Below, piece after piece: positions 17,641 to 60,485 of a stretch of 64,000 nucleotides of DNA; within the stretch, counting starts at the first letter, position 1, and each line of letters begins with the position of its first letter. Below the pieces are notes generated by a model. The model made no database searches, had not been told where the DNA came from, and saw only the letters and a list, made by a program, of their open reading frames with translations. Source of the DNA: Candidatus Anstonellales archaeon (GTDB taxonomy: Archaea; Micrarchaeota; Micrarchaeia; Anstonellales; J096); NCBI GenBank assembly GCA_038890745.1, contig JAWAFD010000004.1, positions 32,001-96,000 of the forward strand, in the 5' to 3' direction. The position numbers and the translations under genes were made by a program.

Positions 17641-19128
17641 ATGGAAACTATTAGTTCAAAAATATCCAACTTGCATAAAGCATACAAACAACTTAATGGC
17701 TACAAAAAAATAAAAGAGGTAGCAAGAGAATTGCGGTTTGAGATCTCTAAAAGGATGTCAACTAGGTACGATATTATTGTTGAGTTTCCTCTTTTTATAG
17801 TACAAAAATATAACCTAAACCCTATTACGAGGCCCATAAAAGTAATAAAAGAAGAAGGAGGAGAATCTGTTTTTAATATCTATCTCCCTCCTATGCATAC
17901 GCATCTTCCAGTGGAGTTTTTGGAGAGATATAGGGCAGAGATGGGAAAATATATACCGTGGTTTGTTGAGAATTATCCGAACCTCCGCACATCCCCCATT
18001 GGTGCAAATGATTTTGATGTTCTGATTACTGTTGTGTTAAGAGAATTGATGAAAACAAACCATTATTTTTTAGAATACCTGCGCGATGAAAACAAGATTC
18101 TTGAAGAAAAAGGACTTAGGAAACGCCTTCTTCTTACCACTGGAGAAGCTTTCATTGTTTTCTTCATCTCAAAAATACAAGAGAAAATATTTAATATGGA
18201 GTTAGAACTAATGAATTTACTTTTGTCCATCATAAAAAGTGATGTGAGCAGAATAGATGTTCTTGCCGTGATACAAAAAGCAGGAAGAGAAAACAACAGC
18301 GCTTTGATTGAAGACTTTATAACCACAGAGCAGAAGAAGTACCATGAACAGAGGATGCAGAAGCTTAAAAGAGATGTTGGGGCTTATACTTGGTTGTTTA
18401 CGGATGAGGAACTTAAGAAATGTATCACCGAAGATGATTACTCCATTATAAAAAGAAAGATTAACTTATGCGATATATTCTCAAAACTTTTTTCAGGCCC
18501 TGATTTTCTTAATCTTGATAAAAAAGCGGATAAAAGTTTAATCCGTTTGATTATAAATATGTCGCTTGGTGCAGGAATAGAGAATGGAGCTGATGCTCTG
18601 AAATGGCTTTTTGAAAACAGAAAAATCTTTGATGCTTTGAATTTACCAGGTTCGAAAATGATATCGCATGCGTTGAAAAGGATTGAGAATCGTAAGATTG
18701 CTGAAACGAACAAAAAACAAAACAGGAGTGGGAAGGTGTCGGTAAAAACGAGTAGTGGCAGTGATAAAAAAAGGGACGATAAGGCAAAACTCAGAGAAAG
18801 AATGAATAAAGTTTGGAGCGAAGAATTACAGAAAAAAATTGAAAATGAAGGGGTTGACCCGCTCGCTGCCTATGCTTGTTTGGAGGCTTTTAAAATGAAA
18901 GGTGGGGCATACCCAACCGGCGCTGCATACAGAAACTTTACAAATGTTATGAAAGCCGCGAGTGGGAAGTATGGTGATAGAGAAAAGATAAATGTTGCGA
19001 TGGAATTTTTGATTTCTATAGGTATTGTTTTGGTCCGTGGGGATAAAAACGAAAAAACCGCAAACCTGACACACTATAACATTAAAGAAGAGTGGCGCGA
19101 GATTGCATTCTGGGTTGAAAAGCCATAA
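17641..19128 (+). CDS. Hypothetical protein
   Basis: 495-aa ORF; no family recognised. Confidence 0.65.
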   Translation: METISSKISNLHKAYKQLNGYKKIKEVARELRFEISKRMSTRYDIIVEFPLFIVQKYNLNPITRPIKVIKEEGGESVFNIYLPPMHTHLPVEFLERYRAEMGKYIPWFVENYPNLRTSPIGANDFDVLITVVLRELMKTNHYFLEYLRDENKILEEKGLRKRLLLTTGEAFIVFFISKIQEKIFNMELELMNLLLSIIKSDVSRIDVLAVIQKAGRENNSALIEDFITTEQKKYHEQRMQKLKRDVGAYTWLFTDEELKKCITEDDYSIIKRKINLCDIFSKLFSGPDFLNLDKKADKSLIRLIINMSLGAGIENGADALKWLFENRKIFDALNLPGSKMISHALKRIENRKIAETNKKQNRSGKVSVKTSSGSDKKRDDKAKLRERMNKVWSEELQKKIENEGVDPLAAYACLEAFKMKGGAYPTGAAYRNFTNVMKAASGKYGDREKINVAMEFLISIGIVLVRGDKNEKTANLTHYNIKEEWREIAFWVEKP

Positions 19129-19165
19129 AACACACATTTTAAATATTTTTCATATAATATGCATC

Positions 19166-20236
19166 ATGGAAGTTATCTCAACTCTGGGAAGCCATTCTGC
19201 GTTGGATGTGTGCGAGGGCGCTAAGCGACATAATTTTAAGACCCTTGTTGTTTGCAAAAAAGGGAGGGAAAAAACATACGATCAGTATTATAAAACAAGG
19301 GTGAGGAATGGGGTAATAATTGGGGTTGTGGACAGTACAATAATTCTAGATGAGTTCAAGCAGATTGCAAACAAGGATGTGCAGAAAAAGCTGGAGGATA
19401 CAGTTTTTATTCCGAACAGAAGCTTTGCGGTTTATGTTGGCTATGATGTAATAGAAAAGGAAATTCATTTTCCGATTTTTGGGAATAAGTTTTTGCTCAG
19501 GGCAGAGGAGCGGGACGCTCCGAAAAATCAATTCTACCTTCTGGAAAAGGCTGGAATAAAAATACCCAAGGTTTATGAAAGGCCAGAGAAGATAGATTCG
19601 CTTGCGATAGTGAAGGTAAGCGAGGCAAAAAGGCATTATGAAAGGGCTTTTTTTGTTGTTTCATCATATGATGAGTACATGGAAAAGGCAAGCCAGATGC
19701 TGAGCGCAGGAATGGTAAAGGAGGAGGATTTGAAGAATGCGAGAATAGAGGAGTTTGTAATCGGTGCGCAGTTCAATTTCAATTTTTTCTACTCAAAAGT
19801 GAATAACGAGCTTGAGCTTCTTGGGCTTGATACCAGGAGGCAGGTGGATTTGGATGGTTTTCTCCATCTTCCGGCGGATAAGCAGCTGGAGGCTCTGAAA
19901 TACAAAAAACCAAAGAATATAGAAGTAGGCCATTTCGCATGCACTATAAGGGAAAGTTTTTTGGAGAAGGTTTTTGAGATGGGTGAGAAGTTTGTTTCAA
20001 CTGTGGAGAAGGAATATGGAAAGTTTGCGGGCCCCTTTGCCTTGCAAGGAATAATAGATGGTAATGAAGAGATGAAAATATTTGATGTGAGTTTTAGGAT
20101 GCCGGGCTCACCCGGAACGAGGTTTACTCCTTATTGCTATTATTTACACAGAAGAGGGTGCGGGGTTGGAGAAAGGGTTGCTGTTGAGATCCGAGAGGCG
20201 ATAAACAAGGAGATGCTGGATGAGGTGACGACATGA
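19166..20236 (+). CDS. purP: PurP-family ATP-grasp protein (FAICAR synthetase-like)
   Basis: TLGSHSALD, PNRSF, FNFNFFYS, GPFALQ; ATG at 19166. Confidence 0.85.
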   Translation: MEVISTLGSHSALDVCEGAKRHNFKTLVVCKKGREKTYDQYYKTRVRNGVIIGVVDSTIILDEFKQIANKDVQKKLEDTVFIPNRSFAVYVGYDVIEKEIHFPIFGNKFLLRAEERDAPKNQFYLLEKAGIKIPKVYERPEKIDSLAIVKVSEAKRHYERAFFVVSSYDEYMEKASQMLSAGMVKEEDLKNARIEEFVIGAQFNFNFFYSKVNNELELLGLDTRRQVDLDGFLHLPADKQLEALKYKKPKNIEVGHFACTIRESFLEKVFEMGEKFVSTVEKEYGKFAGPFALQGIIDGNEEMKIFDVSFRMPGSPGTRFTPYCYYLHRRGCGVGERVAVEIREAINKEMLDEVTT

Positions 20237-21237
20237 TCGCGAAGGAAAAAATAAATAGGATTGTTGAAAGTTATAAAGAGCTAAAAATAGCTACGCTCTG
20301 CTCCCACTCTGCCTTGCAGATTTTTTATGGTGCGAAGTTAGAAGGAATAAAAACAATCGGTATATGTACAAAAGAAAAGAAAAAACTTTACGAAAGATTT
20401 CCGAACACAAAGCCAGATGAGTTTATAATAGTAGATAGTTATAAGGATGTTGATTTCAGCGAGGTTGTTGCCAGAGAAGGAATAATCATTCCACATGGTT
20501 CTTTTGTTGAATATCTTGGGAAAAAACTTGATGCTGCTGAGGTTCCGGTGTATGGAAACAGAAAGTCGCTTGTTTACGAAAGGGATAGAGAAAGGATGCT
20601 CTCCTGGTTGAGGAAGGCCGGAATAAAGGTTCCGAGAACCCTTAAACCAAAAGAAATCAAAAAACCGGCAATAGTCAAGTTTCCGGGAGCAAAGGGGGGG
20701 AGAGGATACCCTATAGTAAAAAGCTATGAAGAGTACAAGAAAAAAGTTGGGGATAGGGAAGCGATCGCACAGGAGTTTATCTCAGGCATAAGAGCATACC
20801 CGCATTATTTTAATTCTATTTTTGAAGGTGTTGAATTGCTCGGGGTTGATAGAAGGATAGAGAGCAACGCGGATGAGTTTGCAAGGGCGATCGCGGCTGG
20901 GTATAAAGACATATCATTTACAATAGTTGCTAATGAAAGCATAATTCTGAGGGAAAGCCTTCTTTTGGAGTATGTAAAGATAGGGGACGCTGTTGTCAGC
21001 GCTTCCAAAAAAATATTTGGTGGAATTTTCGGCCCGTTCTGTGTTGAAACAATAATTACCCCGGATTTAGAGATATACGCATTCGAAATCTCCGCGAGAA
21101 TAGTTGCCGGAACGAACATTCTCTACCATCCATACGCCGAGTTTGCTTATGGAAAGGATATGTTTATCGGAAGAAGGATTGCGGTTGAGCTGAAAAGGGC
21201 ATTTAGAGAAAAAAGGATAAAGGAAATTGTTTACTAA
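20233..21237 (+). CDS. purP: Second PurP-family ATP-grasp protein
   Basis: ATLCSHSALQI, PHGSFVEY, GAKGGRG, LRESLL, FEISARIVAGTN; ATGA overlap with upstream paralogue. Confidence 0.88.
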   Translation: MIAKEKINRIVESYKELKIATLCSHSALQIFYGAKLEGIKTIGICTKEKKKLYERFPNTKPDEFIIVDSYKDVDFSEVVAREGIIIPHGSFVEYLGKKLDAAEVPVYGNRKSLVYERDRERMLSWLRKAGIKVPRTLKPKEIKKPAIVKFPGAKGGRGYPIVKSYEEYKKKVGDREAIAQEFISGIRAYPHYFNSIFEGVELLGVDRRIESNADEFARAIAAGYKDISFTIVANESIILRESLLLEYVKIGDAVVSASKKIFGGIFGPFCVETIITPDLEIYAFEISARIVAGTNILYHPYAEFAYGKDMFIGRRIAVELKRAFREKRIKEIVY

Positions 21238-21238
21238 G

Positions 21239-21489
21239 CGCCGGGGGTGGGATTTTCAGCCAAACCACCCTCCAAAACATCCTAAACAGATATGGGGTGG
21301 AAGCGTGATGCGGTGAAACAAGTGCGACCCAAAAGTTTAGGAGGGTTGGGTCGCACCGAAGCCCTCCGGGTTGTTTCATCGCATCAGGGGGGATGACAAA
21401 GAGTTAAAGCCCCCCTGGGCTTTCGAACCCACGCACCCTTTCGGGTAACAGCTTAGCAGGCTGCCGCCATACCTCTAGGCGACCCCGGC
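21239..21489 (-). tRNA. tRNA-Ser(GCT) with 169-nt T-loop intron (59/60; intron 21253-21421)
   Basis: Minus strand: acceptor GCCGGGG/CCCCGGC, anticodon arm GCAGC-CTGCTAA-GCTGT, long variable arm ACCCGAAAGGGT, T-stem GTGGG/CCCAC; BHB TTCG/TGAA helix with AAA and AAT bulges. Confidence 0.92.
21306..21386 (-). mobile_element. 81-bp MITE-like element, copy 1 (inside tRNA-Ser intron)
   Basis: 16-bp terminal inverted repeats (one mismatch); 80/81 identical to 26171-26251; mobility is inferred. Confidence 0.6.
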
Positions 21490-21564
21490 ACACTCTTTTT
21501 TCTGCACAAAAGGCTTTAAAAACTCTCCAAATCCTTTTTAAACATTTCTTATCCTAAATTATTC

Positions 21565-24500
21565 TTGTTTATGGTGATGGAAATGGCAGAAGAAAAAAGT
21601 TTTGTGGATAGGCTTAAAGAAGATAGAGGGGCATTGGCGCTGGCGCTTTTAGCGCTTCTTTTAATTATATTCGGTGTTTTTGCTGTTCTTGGAGGAGCCG
21701 GCGTAGTTACCATGAGCCCGCCAACAAACCTGCAGGCAACAGTAATCTATCCTAATGTCAAACTTACCTGGGACCACTCGGTTGATTATCCAGATCCTTG
21801 CATAGGCTATAATGTATATTGGAGTACAACCCGTGGACAATTAGGGATTTTGCAGAATGCAGAGCCGATTGCGGATACTAAATATACTATTAAAAATGTA
21901 AAACCAGGAACTTATTATGCAACTGCTAGATGTGTTGATAATGCAGGAAATGAGGATGGTAATCTTGAACAGACCGAGGTTAAGGTTGAACTTCAGCCCC
22001 CGTCAGGTCTTTCAATAGTAATAAATGATGGGGCAGAATACACGAACAAAAGAGATGTTACGCTTGCTCTTTCAGCAACAAATGCCGAAGAATGCACGAA
22101 TGCAAATGAAAATATGGATTGGAGCCCGTGGGGTCCGTATACGGTAGAAAAGGAATGGAAGCTTACAGAGAACGCAGGAGGATGCGAAGAGAAAACAGTT
22201 TACTACAAATGCAGAAACGCTGGTGGAGAATCTTCTCCTGTTTCTGACACAATAATTCTTGATACCCTTCCGCCTTCAGTTTCATTCAACGTTCTTTCTG
22301 CAAAGGATAACACACTAACCATACAGATATTTGCGCAGGATGACTGCGTTCGAGGTGTAGATTGTTATGTTTTTGCAGGTAATCAGCAGATTGGCTCCAT
22401 CCAAAATCTTGCTGGGCAGGCTGAGAGAACATATGAGGTTCCGTATGGAACATATCTATTAGCTGTTGCCTGTACTGATGGTGCAGGAAACTCTGGTTCT
22501 GCTGCACTTGAAGTAAATGTTAAGCAACCCGAGAATGCAACAAACAAAACAGAGATATCCATAAAAATAAATAATGATGCTGCTACAACAACCTCTCTTG
22601 ATGTAACCCTAAACCTTTATTGCAGAATAAACGGGGAAACTCCAGATGCTGTTTACTACAGCAGCGCTGAGATGGGTGAGGTTGGGCCTGAAAGCTACAC
22701 AACATCAAGAAGCTGGGAGCTTGATAATAAAGCCCCAGAGCACACTAGAACTTACACAGTTTGTTATAGGTGCGAAAAGGACGATGTTACGGCAAGGGCA
22801 TGCGATTCCATAAGGTATGTTGTTGAAGAAGAAGGTGGAGGAGGCGGAGGTGGCGGAGGTGGCGGTGGCGATGGACAGGTTCCGCCAAAAAACCTTAAAG
22901 CAGAAATAATTGGATACAGAACCCCTATTGGTACCGGATGGCACTTACCGGTGCTAATACCAGATACTGAAGTTACAAAGGGGAGTGGAGAGACTGGAGG
23001 AGTTTACCTGAGCCTCTCTTCAAGCGGTGCAACTGAGTGCAAGGTTTGGAATGAGAAAATAGAAGGCGTAGATACAGGTGATGATGAAGAGAGCGATGTT
23101 GAATGGAGTTCAGACCTTGTAAATAATCCTAGGTATCCTTGGAAGCTTATTCCTTCTATGATAGTGCAGGTTGAACCAGGGCCAGGAGGGGATGAGTTTA
23201 GACCTAAGGCATTTATAATTATTGTTGGGGATGGAAACAGAACAATAAATTATAAATGCAAAAATAATGCAGGTACAACAGGACCGATTAAGGATAGTAT
23301 ATGGTATGATGCAACAAAACCAAGCTCTGTTGTAAGTTTGAGCGGGGAATATAGAACAATGCTTGGTGAGGGAGATATTGGTTTACCAATTATAAACATA
23401 AAGCTTACATGGGAGCCTTCTGTAGATAACTCTTGGAACTGGGAAGGATATACGCACAAAGGAATACAGCTTTACTCTGTTTGCAGAGCATACACCCTAC
23501 AGAACGACCCAACAAAGTCAAAGCACGACTTTGGATGCAAAGACTACACTCCGGCAGAGATCGGATGCGAGGAGGAAAATGGCTATTTTGCGCTTGAGTG
23601 TGCTCTTACTGACTTTGAACTTCCATCCGACCTACTCAGTCAGGGCGGAAAGATGTGCTATGATGTTAGTGCTTGGGACTATGTTGGATGGCAGAGCAGT
23701 GCTGAACGTGTTTGCGTGGATGTTCCACCATCAGGGCCGATAGATAAAGTTCCAGAAATAATATGGGTTGCAATATATGAAGGAGTAGGTGGGATAGGCG
23801 AAGGCGGAGGAGAGGAACTTCAAGCAAAGGAAAGCACTAGTAAAGTTGAAAAGATAGTAGGTAGCGTAAGCAGTCAAAACCCAACATCAGTTATTCTACT
23901 TGCGCAGCCTGCATATGAAGGAGGTGTACCTCTCAGCCCACCACCGGGAGAGAGCGGGGATATGTACACAAGAATTGCAAATGTTCGTGTACGGGTGATG
24001 GCAGTAAATGCAGAGAAGTGCATGCTTGGGAATGATGGGCCTGTAAAAGGTCAGCCAGTATGGAGCGGAACCTGGAGTGACTATAACGGAGACCCAACAA
24101 CATATACATGGACATTAAATGATAAAGAGGGAAGAAGAACAGTATTCGTTAAATGCAAAAATAACTTCGGCGAGTCAGCCATAGCTAGCGATAGTATAAT
24201 CTACGACCACACGCCGCCCGAAGTTGTTGGTACTGATTGGAAGGCGAATTACATAGAAACATGCGAGAAGAACTGGATATATGTTGCATGGAGCGGTGTA
24301 TTCAATGATGCGATTTCAGGTATAAAACAATATACTGTTAGAGAATATACGCGATATCTAATTGGCGGAGGAGGAAAAGGAGGGCCAGCGTATAACTGGA
24401 CAGAGACAGGAAACTGGACAACTCAAGATACATTCTTGTACGACTACAACTTTGTAAAGGATACTACGTACAAATATACAATAACTGCATGCGACAATGC

Positions 24501-24579
24501 AGGCAACTGCAATAACGTTGGTGTTACCACGGATCCGGTTACACCAACAAAAGACCCGTACAACGTTCCGTGTGAGTAA
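21565..24579 (+). CDS. Large Cys-rich surface protein with FN3/Ig-like repeats and N-terminal membrane anchor
   Basis: N-terminal TM helix, FN3 motif PPTNL...LTWD...YNVY, repeated INDG...VTL...W.L...KTVY.KC.N modules, poly-Gly linker; start may be ATG at 21571-21583. Confidence 0.8.
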   Translation: MFMVMEMAEEKSFVDRLKEDRGALALALLALLLIIFGVFAVLGGAGVVTMSPPTNLQATVIYPNVKLTWDHSVDYPDPCIGYNVYWSTTRGQLGILQNAEPIADTKYTIKNVKPGTYYATARCVDNAGNEDGNLEQTEVKVELQPPSGLSIVINDGAEYTNKRDVTLALSATNAEECTNANENMDWSPWGPYTVEKEWKLTENAGGCEEKTVYYKCRNAGGESSPVSDTIILDTLPPSVSFNVLSAKDNTLTIQIFAQDDCVRGVDCYVFAGNQQIGSIQNLAGQAERTYEVPYGTYLLAVACTDGAGNSGSAALEVNVKQPENATNKTEISIKINNDAATTTSLDVTLNLYCRINGETPDAVYYSSAEMGEVGPESYTTSRSWELDNKAPEHTRTYTVCYRCEKDDVTARACDSIRYVVEEEGGGGGGGGGGGGDGQVPPKNLKAEIIGYRTPIGTGWHLPVLIPDTEVTKGSGETGGVYLSLSSSGATECKVWNEKIEGVDTGDDEESDVEWSSDLVNNPRYPWKLIPSMIVQVEPGPGGDEFRPKAFIIIVGDGNRTINYKCKNNAGTTGPIKDSIWYDATKPSSVVSLSGEYRTMLGEGDIGLPIINIKLTWEPSVDNSWNWEGYTHKGIQLYSVCRAYTLQNDPTKSKHDFGCKDYTPAEIGCEEENGYFALECALTDFELPSDLLSQGGKMCYDVSAWDYVGWQSSAERVCVDVPPSGPIDKVPEIIWVAIYEGVGGIGEGGGEELQAKESTSKVEKIVGSVSSQNPTSVILLAQPAYEGGVPLSPPPGESGDMYTRIANVRVRVMAVNAEKCMLGNDGPVKGQPVWSGTWSDYNGDPTTYTWTLNDKEGRRTVFVKCKNNFGESAIASDSIIYDHTPPEVVGTDWKANYIETCEKNWIYVAWSGVFNDAISGIKQYTVREYTRYLIGGGGKGGPAYNWTETGNWTTQDTFLYDYNFVKDTTYKYTITACDNAGNCNNVGVTTDPVTPTKDPYNVPCE

Positions 24580-24594
24580 TCTTTTTTCTTTTTT

Positions 24595-25155
24595 ATGTTT
24601 TTTAAAAACCCTTACATTAAAATTTTTCTTTTTTCTGTTTTTCTAATACTCTTAGTTATTATTATTTCTGCCTATTTTACGAATTATTCGACGTTTTCCA
24701 TGAGCAAGGGAAAAAAGCCAGCTTCGGTTAGACATGGAGAGTGGATGGAATACAGGATGGAACCGGAGAATAAAACAATTTTTTATTATTCCTTAGGTCA
24801 GGATTGCTACAGGATAAAAATTGAAAACGCCACTTTTGATTACTGTATAAACAAAACAGGAATTTTTCCGGACCCTCTTGCTTATTTTTATCTTCCAGTC
24901 ATTCCATACAACAATCGCACGCCATCTTACTATGCTCAATTTGCAAACATCTCTGGTTATGTTTTTGAAATAGATTCAACACATTTCTATTACTCCGGTG
25001 AAACCGAGTATATCGATAGGCCGGCATACATCATAAAAACAAACAAAAACACTACGTATTTAGTTGACAAAGAAAAAGAAATAGCAGTTTTTATTGATTT
25101 TGGTCAGGTTAAGCTGAACCTGACAAATTCGTCTTTCTTACAGAGAGGGGGATGA
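24595..25155 (+). CDS. Hypothetical membrane-anchored protein
   Basis: 186-aa ORF with N-terminal TM segment. Confidence 0.6.
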   Translation: MFFKNPYIKIFLFSVFLILLVIIISAYFTNYSTFSMSKGKKPASVRHGEWMEYRMEPENKTIFYYSLGQDCYRIKIENATFDYCINKTGIFPDPLAYFYLPVIPYNNRTPSYYAQFANISGYVFEIDSTHFYYSGETEYIDRPAYIIKTNKNTTYLVDKEKEIAVFIDFGQVKLNLTNSSFLQRGG

Positions 25156-25294
25156 CCCCCTTTTCTAGCTCCTCCCGGGCTATTTCTATAAAATCCTGCT
25201 CTGGTTTCACTTTTATCAATGGGGGAGAGCCTAAGGCAAGCTGAAATGCCCTTGCACCAAGTATTCTTGCGAGTTCAAATTTATCGTACTCCAT
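25109..25294 (-). CDS. rpoK: RNA polymerase subunit Rpo6 (K)
   Basis: KFELARILGARAFQLALGSP...IAREEL...IPL. Confidence 0.93.
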   Translation of the reverse strand: MEYDKFELARILGARAFQLALGSPPLIKVKPEQDFIEIAREELEKGVIPLSVRKTNLSGSA

Positions 25295-25298
25295 CTAC

Positions 25299-26078
25299 TC
25301 ACCTTTTTCCGCCCCTTTTTCTTTCTTTTGTTTTTTTGGGTTTTATTATTTTTGGGGAAATTCTTTTAATGCTTTCTCCCGCTTCAGCCGACCCCATTCT
25401 TTCTTCAACATGTGGCTTTCTTTCCTCCTGCTCTCTTTTCTTTTTCATTTCCTCAATCTCAATCTGCATCCTGTTTAGCCTTGCTTCAATATCGTTTATC
25501 TTATTTCCGAAATTTGAGATCATCATCGTAAGCCGTTCTATTATTCTTGTTTCCTCCTTCTCAAACTCCTCCTCTCTCTCCATCGCATGCTTTGCTACCT
25601 CGACCTTGCTTAGCATAGTGCTTACAAGCTCTTTGTAATCACTTATGCCCGGAAGAATGATGTCCGATTCCCCAACATTGCTTCCGGCAGTCTCTATTCT
25701 AAGCGTTGCAAGCCCTAAAAGCTTTTCCAATGGGCTTCTTTCTATATTTACATTTTGCATTTTTTCATATGGTACAACATATGTTTCAGTTCTTATAACC
25801 CCCTTCCTTATCCTTATTTCTGTTTTGTCTAATTTATACCTAAATGCTTTATACACAAGCTCTATCCATGCGAAATAGGGAAGCGCAATGAGCAAAAGTA
25901 GGATGAAGAGGACAACAGGTCCGATGCTTGAGTCAAAACCCAGAAAGTTTATATTGAACCTTACTATTGCAAAACTTAGGATGATCCATATCACAAGGAG
26001 TAATAGTATTGCATTGAGCGACCACAGGAACTTTACTTTTCCATCAAGATGAACCCATTCTCCGTTTTCTTCATTCAT
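25299..26078 (-). CDS. Membrane protein with bacterial-type PH (bPH_2/YdbS-like) domain and coiled-coil tail
   Basis: Two TM helices, then IRKGVI...VPYEKMQNV...LLGLATLRIETAG; start set at ATG 26078 because the longer ORF runs into tRNA-Trp. Confidence 0.8.
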   Translation of the reverse strand: MNEENGEWVHLDGKVKFLWSLNAILLLLVIWIILSFAIVRFNINFLGFDSSIGPVVLFILLLLIALPYFAWIELVYKAFRYKLDKTEIRIRKGVIRTETYVVPYEKMQNVNIERSPLEKLLGLATLRIETAGSNVGESDIILPGISDYKELVSTMLSKVEVAKHAMEREEEFEKEETRIIERLTMMISNFGNKINDIEARLNRMQIEIEEMKKKREQEERKPHVEERMGSAEAGESIKRISPKIIKPKKTKERKRGGKR

Positions 26079-26137
26079 GATAGTTGTTTGTATTTTATTG
26101 TTTAAAAATGTTTGGGGCTGCTGGGATTTCCACCAGA

Positions 26138-26482
26138 CCAGGGGGTACTTTAACTTATTCTCAGACCCCCTGATGCGGTGAAACAACCCGGAGGGCTTCG
26201 GTGCGACCCAACCCTCCTAAACTTTTGGGTCGCACTTGTTTCACCGCATCACGCTTCCACCCCCTATCGTATTAGGGGACCAGAGGGGAGGTCAGCTTAT
26301 TAGATGACCCCCCTAGCTCCAACCCCCCTATCTTATACGAGCAAGGGTTAGCCAAGGGGGGACTTAAGCATATTCTTATTCCCCCCTCACGCTTCCACCC
26401 CCCTATTTTATACGAGCAAGGGTTAGTCAATATAGGGGGTAGTAGAGTAAGGGGGTCTGCGATAAGCAATAGTACCCCCTAG
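26138..26482. repeat. Cluster of four ~50-nt GC-hairpin repeat units (three on +, one on -) plus a 34-nt direct repeat, inside the tRNA-Trp T-loop intron
   Basis: Units start near 26138, 26280, 26352 (+) and 26482 (-); 26322-26355 vs 26397-26430 match at 32/34. Confidence 0.85.
26171..26251 (+). mobile_element. 81-bp MITE-like element, copy 2 (inside tRNA-Trp intron)
   Basis: Perfect 16-bp TIR TGATGCGGTGAAACAA/TTGTTTCACCGCATCA; inner 11-bp inverted repeat; 80/81 identical to 21306-21386; mobility is inferred. Confidence 0.6.
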
Positions 26483-26814
26483 TCTAACGGAGGATACATG
26501 GAACCTAGGGGGAAACTTCCCCCTGGGTTTGGTTTTGAACCCAGATATGCAGGTTTCTTCAACCATCCTCCCCTCAGGTTAAGGGAAGGGGTAGGAGATT
26601 AGAAGGAAATGGGGGAACCGTAGGTTCCCCTGGTTCCTCTCCTGGAGCCTGCCGTGTTGCCTGGTTGCACCACAGCCCCAACGCTTTTATTTCTATTCAG
26701 TATTTATTTAAATGCTTTTTGTTTTGTGTTTTTTGGGGGAGTTTTGCTATTCTTATTTTCCGCCTAAAAAGCAACGCATTTAAAACAATATGCTCAAATC
26801 AACGCGGTGGTTGG

Positions 26815-31849: not shown

Positions 31850-34528
31850 ATGGAAACTTCCTATGCGCCTCTCTCTACATTAACTTTAAGAGCGTATGCG
31901 CATAAACTGAGGGAAAACGAATCATTCTGGAATGCTTTTCTTGTTTTTCTTGGGGCGTTGGGCATTCTCTCAGTCGCACCCTTTTATCCTCCTTATATCA
32001 TTCCTATTCTTGCGATAATCGCCGGAGGAATAGCGTACAAAAAACCTCCTCTTGGAGTGATACTCTCAACATTTCTCGCGCTTTTTTCATTCAGCTACCA
32101 AAGCACTGTTTTTGGATGGGTTTTTCTTTTGGTCCTGGCGTTTGTCCTTTTTGAAGCATGGGAGTATTGGGGGATAATCGCAGCGCTGCAGATTTTGGTT
32201 TTCCTTCCATTCGCTCCATTCCCCATCTCTCTCTTAGGAGGGTTTATTTACCTTGGGATGGTCCTCGCGGCCCTTCATTTCGGCTCCCATAGATCAGTAG
32301 CTATAGCAGCAGGCTCTATCCTCCTTGTCCTTCTTCTTTCTTCAGTATGGCAGGTTGACAATGCAGCGTATTTTCCGATAAAAAAAGAGATATATCTAAC
32401 AAATGAGGATCTTCAGGTTTCAAAGCCCCCCCTTGATATGATCACAATATTTTCGGGGTTTGGAATTGCAGTGGGCAATCTTTTTGATTTTGCAACTGCC
32501 CTCAGGCTAAATGCAGCACTTTCTGTTGTTTCCACAAATCTTTTAAGAATACTTTTTATGGACTCAGGTATTGCGCAGTTGTTTATATGGGCAGCCGTTC
32601 TTTATGTTGTTTCATTTCTTCCGGGTAGAATAAAAACAAAAAACATAGAAATTCTGTGCTCCCTTACCCTCCTTCTCGTCCCACTTTTCTACTATCCCAT
32701 GTGCATGGCGTTTGGGGTTGAGTTCAGAATGGAGATGGTGGCTTATGCTGTTGCATCTGTTCTCCTGATTGCATTTGCAGAATCCATTGGTTTTAGGTTT
32801 AGCAAGGAGCTTGAGATAATAAAAAAAGAGCAGATGAAAATGTACGGAAAGTTTGGGTTGCAGGAGCTTACTTTGAGCAAAGGCGAGAAGGGGCTTGAGG
32901 ATGTTGGGGGGTATGAGGAAGTAAAAAAGGAGCTTAAAGAAGCAATAATTACGCCGTTGCAGAAGGCGGAGGTTGCGTATGCTTATGGGTTGAAACCACC
33001 GAAGGGAATACTGTTTTTCGGCCCTCCGGGAACCGGTAAAACAATGCTTATGCGCGCCCTTGCAAAAGAAATAGACTATCCATTTTTCTATGTTAAATCA
33101 TCAGAGATAATGTCTAAATGGTATGGAGAAAGCGAGAAGAATATAACAGAAATATTTGACATAGCAAGAAAGCATAGCCCGTGTATTTTGTTTTTTGATG
33201 AGATTGACTGGATAGGAAAGAGAAGGGATGCGAGGGCAAGAGGAGAGGGACCTGAGGTTCTGAGCATATTCCTTATGGAGCTTGATGGGTTTAGGACAGA
33301 GAAGCCGGTAATTGTAATAGGCGCAACAAACGTCCCAAACCTTCTCGACCCTGCCCTCCTAAGGCCGGGAAGGTTTGACAAAATAATATACATGCCTGTT
33401 CCTGATATGGAGGGAAGAAAATCAATATTCAAAGTACATACAAAAGGTCTGCCGCTTGCTCAGGATGTTGATTTTGAAAAGCTTGCGAAGATGACAGAGA
33501 GGTTTACTGGCGCTGACATCGCGAATGTTGTTGCAGAGGCAAAAAAGCTTGCCGCAAGCGAGGCAATGGAAAAAAACATCATTGTTCCTATAAGAATGGA
33601 GCATTTTATTGAAGTAATAGAAAATACAAAACCGTCTGTGAGCCTCTCTTTATTGGAAGAGCATGAAAAATTCAAGCTTGATTTTGAGAGGAGTATGGGG
33701 AAGATAAAGGAAAGGGAAAGAAAGGAGGCGGAGAAAAAGATAAAGTTTGCGGACGTTGCAAACTTAGAGGATGTTAAGAATGCGCTGAGGGAGGCGGTTG
33801 AGATGCCTCTCCTCCACCCAGAGCTTTTGGAGGAGTTTGAGGTTAAGCCGGTTTCTGGTATCCTCCTCTTCGGCCCTCCAGGAACGGGTAAAACATACAT
33901 AGTAAAGGCTGCTGCGAATGAGTTCAATGTTCCGATGCTGTTTTTAAGCGGCGCAGAGCTTATGGAAAGAGGTCCTTCTCAGGCTGTTGAGGTGATAAAG
34001 GAAACATTCAACAGGGCAAGGGAGAATGCGCCAGCAGTAATATTCATAGATGAAATAGAAACGGTTGCGCCCGCAAGAGAGGTTGTTAGTCCTATAATGG
34101 GCCAGCTGCTGCAGGAGATGGATGGGATAAGAAAAACAAAGAATGTTGTTGTGATCGGGGCGACAAACCTCCCGCAGATGCTTGACCCTGCCCTCCTAAG
34201 GCCTGGAAGGTTCGACAAAATAATATATGTAGGACCTCCGAATAAAGAAGTAAGGGAGGAGATATTCAGAATACATTTGGGAAATTTTGCGAGAATGTTT
34301 GATTTGGAAAAGCTGGCCGAGGCTGCTAAGGATTACAGCGGTGCGGATATCGCAAGCGTCTGCCAAGAGGTTAAGATGGCACTTGCAAAGAAAAAGCTTG
34401 AGGGCAAAACACCAAGCATGACGAATGCTGAGGTTATAAAAATAATTCAGAGCAGGATGCCTTCAATAAGTCGGGATATGCTTTATGTTTATAAGAAATT
34501 TATAGAGGAGTATGGGGAAAGGAGGTAA
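31850..34528 (+). CDS. Cdc48/VCP-like double AAA ATPase with polytopic membrane N-terminus
   Basis: About 330-aa hydrophobic N-terminus; two AAA modules, each with GPPGTGKT, DE Walker B and DPALLRPGRFD. Confidence 0.9.
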   Translation: METSYAPLSTLTLRAYAHKLRENESFWNAFLVFLGALGILSVAPFYPPYIIPILAIIAGGIAYKKPPLGVILSTFLALFSFSYQSTVFGWVFLLVLAFVLFEAWEYWGIIAALQILVFLPFAPFPISLLGGFIYLGMVLAALHFGSHRSVAIAAGSILLVLLLSSVWQVDNAAYFPIKKEIYLTNEDLQVSKPPLDMITIFSGFGIAVGNLFDFATALRLNAALSVVSTNLLRILFMDSGIAQLFIWAAVLYVVSFLPGRIKTKNIEILCSLTLLLVPLFYYPMCMAFGVEFRMEMVAYAVASVLLIAFAESIGFRFSKELEIIKKEQMKMYGKFGLQELTLSKGEKGLEDVGGYEEVKKELKEAIITPLQKAEVAYAYGLKPPKGILFFGPPGTGKTMLMRALAKEIDYPFFYVKSSEIMSKWYGESEKNITEIFDIARKHSPCILFFDEIDWIGKRRDARARGEGPEVLSIFLMELDGFRTEKPVIVIGATNVPNLLDPALLRPGRFDKIIYMPVPDMEGRKSIFKVHTKGLPLAQDVDFEKLAKMTERFTGADIANVVAEAKKLAASEAMEKNIIVPIRMEHFIEVIENTKPSVSLSLLEEHEKFKLDFERSMGKIKERERKEAEKKIKFADVANLEDVKNALREAVEMPLLHPELLEEFEVKPVSGILLFGPPGTGKTYIVKAAANEFNVPMLFLSGAELMERGPSQAVEVIKETFNRARENAPAVIFIDEIETVAPAREVVSPIMGQLLQEMDGIRKTKNVVVIGATNLPQMLDPALLRPGRFDKIIYVGPPNKEVREEIFRIHLGNFARMFDLEKLAEAAKDYSGADIASVCQEVKMALAKKKLEGKTPSMTNAEVIKIIQSRMPSISRDMLYVYKKFIEEYGERR

Positions 34529-48560: not shown

Positions 48561-48656
48561 CGGGCCTGGCGAGATTTGAACTCGCGACCTATGGATCTCC
48601 TTGCTTTTAAGGAGGCGTAAAAGTCCACCGCTCTGGCCAGGCTGAGCTACAGGCCC
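48561..48656 (-). tRNA. tRNA-Lys(TTT) with 21-nt canonical intron (37/38; 48597-48617)
   Basis: GGGCCTG/CAGGCCC; GTGGA-CTTTTA^A-TCCAT; GCGAG-TTCAAAT-CTCGC. Confidence 0.93.
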
Positions 48657-59660: not shown

Positions 59661-59774
59661 GGGCCCATAGTCGAGAGCCTTAAGCCCTGCTAACATTTGT
59701 CAGCTGAGGCCGACAATGGTTAAGACGCCACCCTTACAAGGTGGAGATCCCCAGTTCGATCCTGGGTGGGCCCA
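59661..59774 (+). tRNA. tRNA-Val(TAC) with 41-nt D-loop intron (15/16; 59676-59716)
   Basis: GGGCCCA/TGGGCCC; CCACC-CTTACAA-GGTGG; CCCAG-TTCGATC-CTGGG; GTCG/CGAC helix with AG^A and AA^T cut sites restores GTCGAG-TGG. Confidence 0.9.
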
Positions 59775-59778
59775 AAAG

Positions 59779-59828
59779 CCAGGGGGGGGCCTTAGCTTAT
59801 TAGTTGACCCCCTAGCTTCAACCCCCTA
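59779..59828 (+). repeat. Copy of the ~50-nt GC-hairpin repeat in the tRNA-Val 3' trailer
   Basis: AGCTTATTAGTTGACCCCCTAGCTTCAACCCCCTA vs AGCTTATTAGATGACCCCCCTAGCTCCAACCCCCCTA at 26294-26330. Confidence 0.8.
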
Positions 59829-60350: not shown

Positions 60351-60474
60351 GGGCCTGTAGCTCAGCCTGGTCAGAGCGCCGGACTCTTAATCCGGGTGTC
60401 GGGGGTTCGAAGAGCCCTTTTTGCTTCGCAAAAAGCGCTTCAGCGGAAAAGGTTCGGAAATCCCCCCAGGCCCG
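60351..60474 (+). tRNA. tRNA-Lys(CTT) with 49-nt T-loop intron (59/60; 60412-60460)
   Basis: GGGCCTG/CAGGCCC; CCGGA-CTCTTAA-TCCGG; BHB TTCG/CGGA with AAG and AAT bulges, AGCC/GGTT inner helix. Confidence 0.93.
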
Positions 60475-60485
60475 ATGGTGCGAAA

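Follow-up and report, generated by a model that had tools for sequence, protein, structure and literature searches.

The 64,000-nucleotide (nt) stretch analyzed here, hereafter the window, comprises positions 32,001 to 96,000 of contig JAWAFD010000004.1 (GenBank assembly GCA_038890745.1; G000:C4:32001-96000 in our designation) and comes from a Candidatus Anstonellales archaeon whose genome, G000, measures 0.99 Mb and is 94% complete. It contains two tRNA genes, tRNA-Ser(GCT) and tRNA-Trp(CCA), each of which is split in the T-loop by an intron that carries a copy of the same 81-nt element (Table 1). As a first-pass annotation of the window had claimed, both host genes lie on the minus strand, and segment 21294-21391 (minus) agrees with segment 26166-26263 (plus) at 97 of 98 nt; the match is made up of 5 nt of flank, the 81-nt core, and 12 nt of flank. 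The 16-bp terminal inverted repeats (TIRs) attributed to the core are perfect in copy 2, but only 15 of the 16 positions pair in copy 1. Covariance models place the 81-mer in a family of T-shaped inserts that lack genes and occur in this archaeal order, of which it is a shortened member. Members of this family insert at new sites, because both filled and empty sites exist.

Table 1. Positions of the features discussed in the text (TIR, terminal inverted repeat; H and h, helices of the intron junction)
Feature	Position	Strand	Remarks
Tandem DUF1246/DUF1297 genes (two)	19103..21237	+	
tRNA-Ser(GCT) gene, split by a T-loop intron	21239..21489	-	cloverleaf; ARAGORN on the spliced form
tRNA-Ser intron at 59/60, 169 nt	21253..21421	-	strict bulge-helix-bulge by sequence (H UUCG/UGAA, h GCC/GGC)
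T-shaped element, copy 1, 81 nt	21306..21386	-	TIRs 21306-21321 and 21371-21386, mismatch at 21379
Predicted surface protein, 1004 aa	21565..24579	+	
tRNA-Trp(CCA) gene, two introns	26113..26679	-	ARAGORN
tRNA-Trp intron at 59/60, 407 nt	26127..26533	-	full of host hairpin modules; H UUCA/UGGA, h CCA/UGG
Host repeat module carrying copy 2	26135..26268	+	G5-loop-C5 hairpin and spacer; inverted relative to the tRNA in comparison with the Ser intron
T-shaped element, copy 2, 81 nt	26171..26251	+	TIRs 26171-26186 and 26236-26251; short hairpin 26187-26195, linker CTTCG 26196-26200, long hairpin 26201-26235
Sister module	26381..26406	+	TCA (26387-26389) in the element's place; nearest empty look-alike for the intron copies
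tRNA-Trp canonical 37/38 intron, 87 nt	26555..26641	-	ARAGORN i(38,87)
tRNA-Lys(TTT)	48561..48656	-	21-nt canonical intron
tRNA-Val(TAC)	59661..59826	+	D-arm intron
tRNA-Lys(CTT)	60351..60475	+	short T-loop intron

The 81-mer folds into a T on either strand and as either DNA or RNA: the terminal stem has 16 bp, the two hairpins have 9 and 35 nt, and the linker between them has 5 nt. On both strands the fold is far more stable than expected by chance (z of -7.7 to -9.2; 0 of 200 shuffles), and as RNA it forms a stable three-way junction. In the Ser intron, the transcript meets the short hairpin first.

Neither host tRNA is recognized in the raw window by ARAGORN or Rfam; once the T-loop introns are removed in silico, ARAGORN calls both tRNA-Ser(GCT) and tRNA-Trp(CCA). 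The junctions of both introns read as bulge-helix-bulge (BHB) motifs by sequence, and the joined exons are tRNAs according to ARAGORN. Forcing the BHB yields a full cloverleaf at a cost over the minimum free energy of 3.0 kcal/mol (Ser) or 7.8 kcal/mol (Trp), and in both genes this cost is identical with and without the element. A splicing endonuclease domain is encoded in G000. The 81-mer was also considered as a BHB intron in its own right and was rejected on inspection, as its ends form a symmetric 16-bp stem without the 4-bp helix or the bulges. The element is carried by the intron as cargo and does not itself constitute an intron. It is predicted to fold within the intron as a closed domain that leaves the BHB intact, the intron then being removed by the splicing endonuclease; splicing would hide the element from the mature tRNA and would explain its tolerance in introns.

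T-loop BHB introns at position 59/60 are known from ARMAN-2, where they are cleaved in vitro (13 nt in the assayed example; PMC3239211), and intron families common to different tRNA genes are known from Thermoproteales (as cited in 10.64898/2026.10.13.758758). The introns described here resemble the former in position and BHB motif and the latter in that related introns occupy different tRNA genes. Unlike the ARMAN-2 example, they are 169-407 nt long and are built of repeat modules carrying a mobile insert.

The runs that contain the window stretch are hot-spring metagenomes, and the assembly was checked by comparing Logan contigs from four runs (among them X1, X2, and X3) with the window. Unique contigs of X1 and X2 reach both introns with zero differences, and one X2 piece (21349-21423, zero differences) spans the Ser-side junction and extends over 31 nt beyond it in both directions. 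Among the matches listed, none reaches across the Trp copy with 31 nt to either side; its junction is therefore only partly supported, so that spanning sequence, which the first-pass annotation had named as the check for both loci, secures the Ser junction but not fully the Trp one. Palindromes confuse assemblers, and the L350 locus has the same flank mirrored on both sides. It is nevertheless scarcely credible that either window copy arose as an artefact of assembly: an X2 piece crosses the Ser junction, variants and flanks are private to each locus, a sister-species contig (L284) has a family member in the Trp T-loop intron, and the window contig is free of N.

Copies in the genome and their host repeat

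The first-pass annotation had described the element from two tRNA introns; it is, however, neither limited to two copies nor specific to introns. BLAST of G000 yielded 14 full copies, half of which (7/14) lie outside introns, together with one decayed copy, one truncated end, and one diverged 107-nt relative. As assigned by inspection, seven full copies are located in five T-loop introns (one each in Ser-GCT, Trp, and Leu-GAG; two each in Arg-TCT and Leu-TAG), five just behind tRNA 3' ends, one upstream of a tRNA, and one without a tRNA nearby. All 14 are preceded by the C-run of one tRNA-linked host hairpin module, and 21 of the 26 clusters of this host repeat in G000 are tRNA-linked, again by inspection; the tRNA association is therefore a property of the host repeat rather than of the element. 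Differences from the Trp copy amount to 0-7 nt, and sequence variants track flank class.

The tRNA-Ser(GCT) intron belongs to the same intron family as the Leu(GAG), Leu(TAG), and Arg(TCT) introns. These four have common ends and a common BHB, and since both ends are shared, they were apparently copied as whole introns with the element inside. Shared flanks suggest that recombination or gene conversion carried modules and whole T-loop introns from one tRNA gene to another, with the element aboard. In this lineage, the element likely entered the tRNA-linked hairpin repeat in one or two events and then spread as a passenger. The earlier picture of a recently copied, non-autonomous element nested in a host repeat is borne out; one insertion followed by copying and two insertions had been regarded as equally likely, but the former is the better of the two.

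The opposite orientation of the two window copies had been taken to favor movement at the DNA level or gene conversion over reverse splicing. The element does move at the DNA level, but the orientation reflects an inverted host module: the modules of the window match in inverted orientation over 135 nt at 91%, and the same C-run and CGCTTCCACCCC flanks surround both elements. Because the host module is inverted together with the element, the orientation is not evidence for two insertions. A true flip is found at tRNA-Leu(GAG), where a core identical to the Trp copy is inverted inside Ser-type flanks, and at L350-L355 both element orientations occur within the same flanks. Recombination between the 16-bp arms could flip the interior of the element. 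Moreover, all three head-to-tail doublets have an 82-nt period (core plus C), the members of each pair being closest to each other; such exact doublets may result from hairpin-aided slippage on the flanking C. At L350:1950-2986, a family member lies between slightly diverged mirror copies of the same gene start, and these mirrored flanks reflect either a genuine inverted duplication or a chimera that joins strains differing in orientation.

One host module (L002, L147, L355) has the form TCATAGGGG(G)-loop-CCCCT. It matches the last hairpin before TTCAC at the right end of IS200 in genome G028 (G028:C15 and sister contigs), and the host repeats may, to judge by this likeness, derive from IS200/IS605 ends.

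The unit at 26381-26406, presented earlier as the same site without the insert, has the sequence that was quoted, but its 3-nt TCA replacement makes it a look-alike rather than an exact empty site. For the intron-type junction CCCCC^CGC, G000 yielded no exact empty form, and a later join at TCAC microhomology is the best explanation of the TCA site. For non-intron copies, exact empty modules are present in G000: CCCCC^CCTGC has the empty counterpart CCCCCTGC in nine places and CCCCC^CCTTA the counterpart CCCCCTTA in four, and both filled/empty pairs correspond to a CC duplication. Other strains and species supply further comparisons. In a diverged strain (run X3), the place of 151 nt of the window's Ser intron, element included, is taken by 82 nt of other modules; the Ser introns of genomes G001 and G002 and the Trp intron of G002 also lack the element. 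In a sister species, the Trp T-loop intron occurs both filled (L284) and empty (L147), the two being identical on the single flank present in L284, a 318-nt metagenome contig, short and possibly chimeric, with a 103-nt-type member in this intron.

A module that is not itself mobile, a palindrome only rearranged within and between repeat arrays as they recombine, switch templates, or undergo gene conversion, would account for all 14 full copies in G000 and for the mixed footprints described below, and it would do so without the enzyme that has not been found. For the family this explanation is improbable, and it is largely refuted by the diverged 107-nt member of G000 (L019:1444-1550; G000:C2:135073-135179), which lies at the overlap of an aminotransferase-like open reading frame (ORF), named from sequence motifs, and the aTrm56 gene, and whose site is empty in both of two congeners. 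Insertion therefore occurs without the host repeat. This member alters the C-terminus of the upstream ORF and overlaps the start region of aTrm56, the frame of which is open throughout the member; its right arm offers GTG where the congeners have TTG. Lone members in single-copy DNA, such as this one and an in-frame copy in a ribosomal protein S9 gene (see below), have no guiding homology, and unrelated sites are numerous in genomes G028, G208, G274, G307, G315, and G353.

The family across the order

A first covariance model, built from the copies of G000, G002, and G058, recovered members in three further genomes, and a second model found members in 9 of 150 genomes of the order. The G058 copy, counted among these nine carriers, lies on a 2.3-kb contig that is 97% identical to G002 with the same flanks and is possibly mis-binned. 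Phylum-wide samples (149 genomes; 26 candidates scored per genome, so that weak ones could be missed) gave members only in G002 and G058. The unpublished genome G080 underlies none of the claims made here. In another scan, 10 of 40 matches clearly passed the model, all of them from Micrarchaeota records, and one actinomycete match was marginal (21 bits). Scans of viral sequences returned no family member. Looser searches were set aside: none of the 80 listed loci from a pattern scan of genome contigs was archaeal, which points to chance matches; matches in 126 of 401 genomes were coding-sequence noise, exact paired matches occurring only in G000, G002, and G058; a metagenome scan had 3 real loci out of 120; and a 1.5-kb inverted pair in G400 was due to chance. 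A description of the family was not found in the literature covered, which excluded subscription papers, and the tables of miniature transposable elements with inverted repeats (MITEs) in PMC11602168 may contain it. The family is apparently undescribed, MITE-like, and hitch-hiking in tRNA introns.

In G028, the richest carrier, the second model gave 65 match rows with both strands counted. A structure parser identified 30 intact copies in 1.11 Mb of this genome and 15 in G000, as compared with none in the reversed control. Across model matches, members are 68-155 nt long. The TIRs measure 16 bp and have 0-3 mismatches; stem mismatches concentrate at positions 8-10 (21 of 27). The 30 intact G028 copies are 103-104 nt long, with hairpins that sum to 66-67 nt. 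What the family keeps is the length of the stem, the C-N3-G linker, and the letters at the junctions (C-R-A/CC and C/T), but not the outermost letters of its ends. Among 12 diverse members, from which the tested structure was itself derived, pairing is seen in 97.5% of cells, and both sides have changed in 15 of 27 pairs, versus at most 5 in slid controls.

Strong covariation and a three-way junction that is stable as RNA are features that would also be displayed by a structured RNA that has a function, is released from tRNA introns, and is maintained by selection. Such a role is very improbable: the element is found in either orientation, its two strands fold equally well, the orthologous introns of close relatives lack it, it is present in only one of 18 other genomes of the taxonomic family, members elsewhere are mostly outside tRNAs, and Rfam contains no match to it.

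In other families, ARAGORN called no tRNA in the six loci of the element family that were scanned. Outside this genus, members are mostly intergenic; the further contexts shown include one beside a tRNA 5' end and several nested in other copies. Nested copies sit in the linker or stem of their hosts, and in G028 nesting reaches three levels (L518:900-2000, L516) amid many short hairpin repeats and multi-copy IS200 ends. In G353:C3 (L534:1380-2111), a ribosomal protein S9 gene, identified by Pfam, has an in-frame member at 1501-1607; these 107 nt plus one base add 36 codons to a low-complexity N-terminal extension of S9, of which no empty allele was encountered. The family of the 81-mer also lies between and inside ordinary genes of related archaea, and its link with tRNAs is a local habit of one genus, less surprising than the first reading implied. 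In G002, both Val genes have T-loop introns containing a family member (L190, L191).

Insertion footprints and the search for an enzyme

The 81-mer is probably a non-autonomous element that was placed by a transposase acting in trans and subsequently carried, flipped, and doubled by recombination and slippage. The family is short and non-coding, has TIRs, and is multi-copy with filled and empty sites, as expected of a MITE. Its footprint depends on the target: short direct repeats are usual, and a 1-nt loss occurs in at least one nested type. In particular, non-nested junction types of G028 have a 2-nt direct repeat in 9 of 11 cases, and all five G353 sites have a single G on both sides. The length of the target-site duplication varies across members, with CC, GG, GA, CG, or CA among the 2-nt repeats; an enzyme that cuts with a short stagger, most likely of 2 nt and in a DDE-like manner, would leave such repeats.

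Several observations weigh against this explanation. The 46 distinct junction contexts, which are not independent, comprise 16 with a 2-nt repeat, 23 with a 1-nt repeat, and 7 with none. Junctions nested in another member, a class assigned by inspection, have a 2-nt repeat in 0 of 8 cases, and comparison of nested CTT^GGT with empty CTTAGGT (six in-genome places) reveals a 1-nt loss; the aTrm56 site shows a 2-nt loss relative to the congeners. Terminal sequences vary (TGATG, TGACA, TAACA, AAACA, AGATA, CGAAA), an uncommon property in a DDE substrate. The searches yielded no autonomous partner: G000 lacks matches to Y1_Tnp, DDE_Tnp_1, DDE_3, phage integrase, and IS110 (other DDE families were not searched), and the ends of the carriers' IS605, IS4/5, and IS110 elements are unrelated to those of the family. 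As regards splicing, the fold predicted at equilibrium does not contain the BHB (P(H) of at most 0.03 in all five intron genes), and the T-stem probability is close to 0 for Trp and Leu(TAG).

The window contains no transposase, as the first-pass annotation had stated, and the partner it had envisaged, an insertion sequence (IS) or HUH/RAYT transposase with matching ends, is absent from the inspected IS605, IS4/5, IS110, and IS200 elements (IS630-like and others were not inspected). Solo ends in 1.11 Mb of G028 are contig breaks, nested copies, or truncations, and none brackets a gene. A weak TnpB-profile match in G000 is a zinc-ribbon protein in an ordinary gene context; an IS630-type MITE duplicating TA is possible for the TAAC-ended subtype only, as the 81-mer and most members end in TG..CA; and derivation from IS110/IS1111 is contradicted by the lack of sub-terminal repeats or bridge RNA shared with IS110 recombinase elements.

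It is possible, though rather unlikely, that the signal is geometry instead of end sequence, and that, as with REP/REPIN or PATE-type elements, the unit (81-mer plus final C) is a single-stranded hairpin recognized by its structure and moved by an HUH enzyme (IS200/IS605 TnpA-like) or by the host's repair machinery. The combination of fixed geometry and variable ends in the 30 intact G028 copies, the compensatory changes in 15 of 27 pairs, and the nesting of copies in the linker or stem of others are consistent with such a route. The reversed 81-mer, moreover, reads GAAG-hairpin-TTCAC, which resembles observed IS200/IS605 right ends, and one host module is like the IS200 right-end hairpin of G028. 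Matches to Y1_Tnp, the IS200-type TnpA, number 14 in G028 and occur in 5 of 9 carriers versus 41 of 150 genomes overall, but this co-occurrence is weak (Fisher p=0.063, kin not being independent), G000 and G002 have no match, and no family member forms the end of a TnpA gene in the 18 loci inspected. Transposition of IS200/IS605 makes no target duplication, whereas 2-nt repeats are common in the family. Under the guide rule, checked by eye, linker sequences do not track the terminal tetranucleotide, GAAG/TCAC fitting in the 81-mer only. IS200/IS605 elements are reported to be common in Micrarchaeota generally (PMC13343696).

As described in PMC10969869 and PMC11602168, prokaryotic MITEs, including Sulfolobus SM1-SM4 and the dense sets reported in some DPANN genomes, are likewise gene-less, shorter than 500 bp, bounded by TIRs, and multi-copy, with short direct repeats at many sites and presumed mobilization in trans. 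In contrast to them, the present family conserves its T geometry and not its end sequences, has direct repeats of just 1-2 nt that turn into a 1-nt loss in nested copies, is GC-rich, and has no partner IS that could be found; in this genus it is restricted to T-loop introns and to repeats linked to tRNAs. The palindromic elements of Rickettsia (PMC10969869) are also palindromic inserts of approx. 100-150 nt able to sit in frame in genes, but in-frame coding insertion is exceptional here (one clear case); this comparison is by description, not by sequence. Mobile GC clusters of yeast mitochondria, according to PMC4478555, are short GC-rich hairpins with 2-3-nt flanking repeats and no known enzyme, which keep their structure while loops vary and which merge and shuffle. 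These clusters are organellar, whereas the family described here has a long closing stem, and no homology is claimed. Similar short GC-rich hairpins are the double-hairpin elements of fungal mitochondria. REP/REPIN and other non-autonomous derivatives of IS200/IS605 are hairpin-based and nested and occur in genomes with Y1 HUH transposases; unlike REP/REPIN, no member of this family flanks a TnpA/RAYT gene, 2-nt duplications are frequent, and the TIR is long.

Fixed geometry with free ends, Russian-doll nesting, and a target-dependent footprint are features that ordinary MITEs lack, and they provide a concrete substrate for finding the enzyme of the family. A 2026 Asgard survey (10.64898/2026.10.13.758758) found no general route by which DNA arrives in archaeal tRNA introns and states that the question is open. 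Strain-level filled and empty alleles of a defined insert in T-loop introns make intron growth and copying directly traceable. A bolder, doubtful interpretation is that the family represents mobile DNA of archaea defined by shape, in which a T-shaped single strand (16-bp stem, two hairpins, 5-nt C-N3-G linker) would be pasted by an HUH-type or host enzyme into duplex DNA and other hairpins, and that together with the host repeats it would constitute a route of tRNA-intron growth and turnover caught in the act.

Other features of the window

The canonical 37/38 intron of tRNA-Trp is repetitive, too: further copies lie next to duplicated fragments of tRNA-Leu on contigs C2 and C3 of G000. Euryarchaeal tRNA-Trp introns carry a C/D box guide; none is evident by eye in this intron. 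Directly 3' of the tRNA-Val(TAC) gene lies a host-repeat module. The tRNA-Lys(CTT) gene is missed by ARAGORN at default settings and matched in part by Rfam. The surface protein, predicted to have fibronectin III/Ig-like domains and a poly-Gly linker, is encoded between the Ser and Trp tRNA genes. The two DUF1246/DUF1297 genes, which we take to be PurP-like, end directly at the 3' end of tRNA-Ser, and in G002 (L156) an extra gene separates them from the tRNA.

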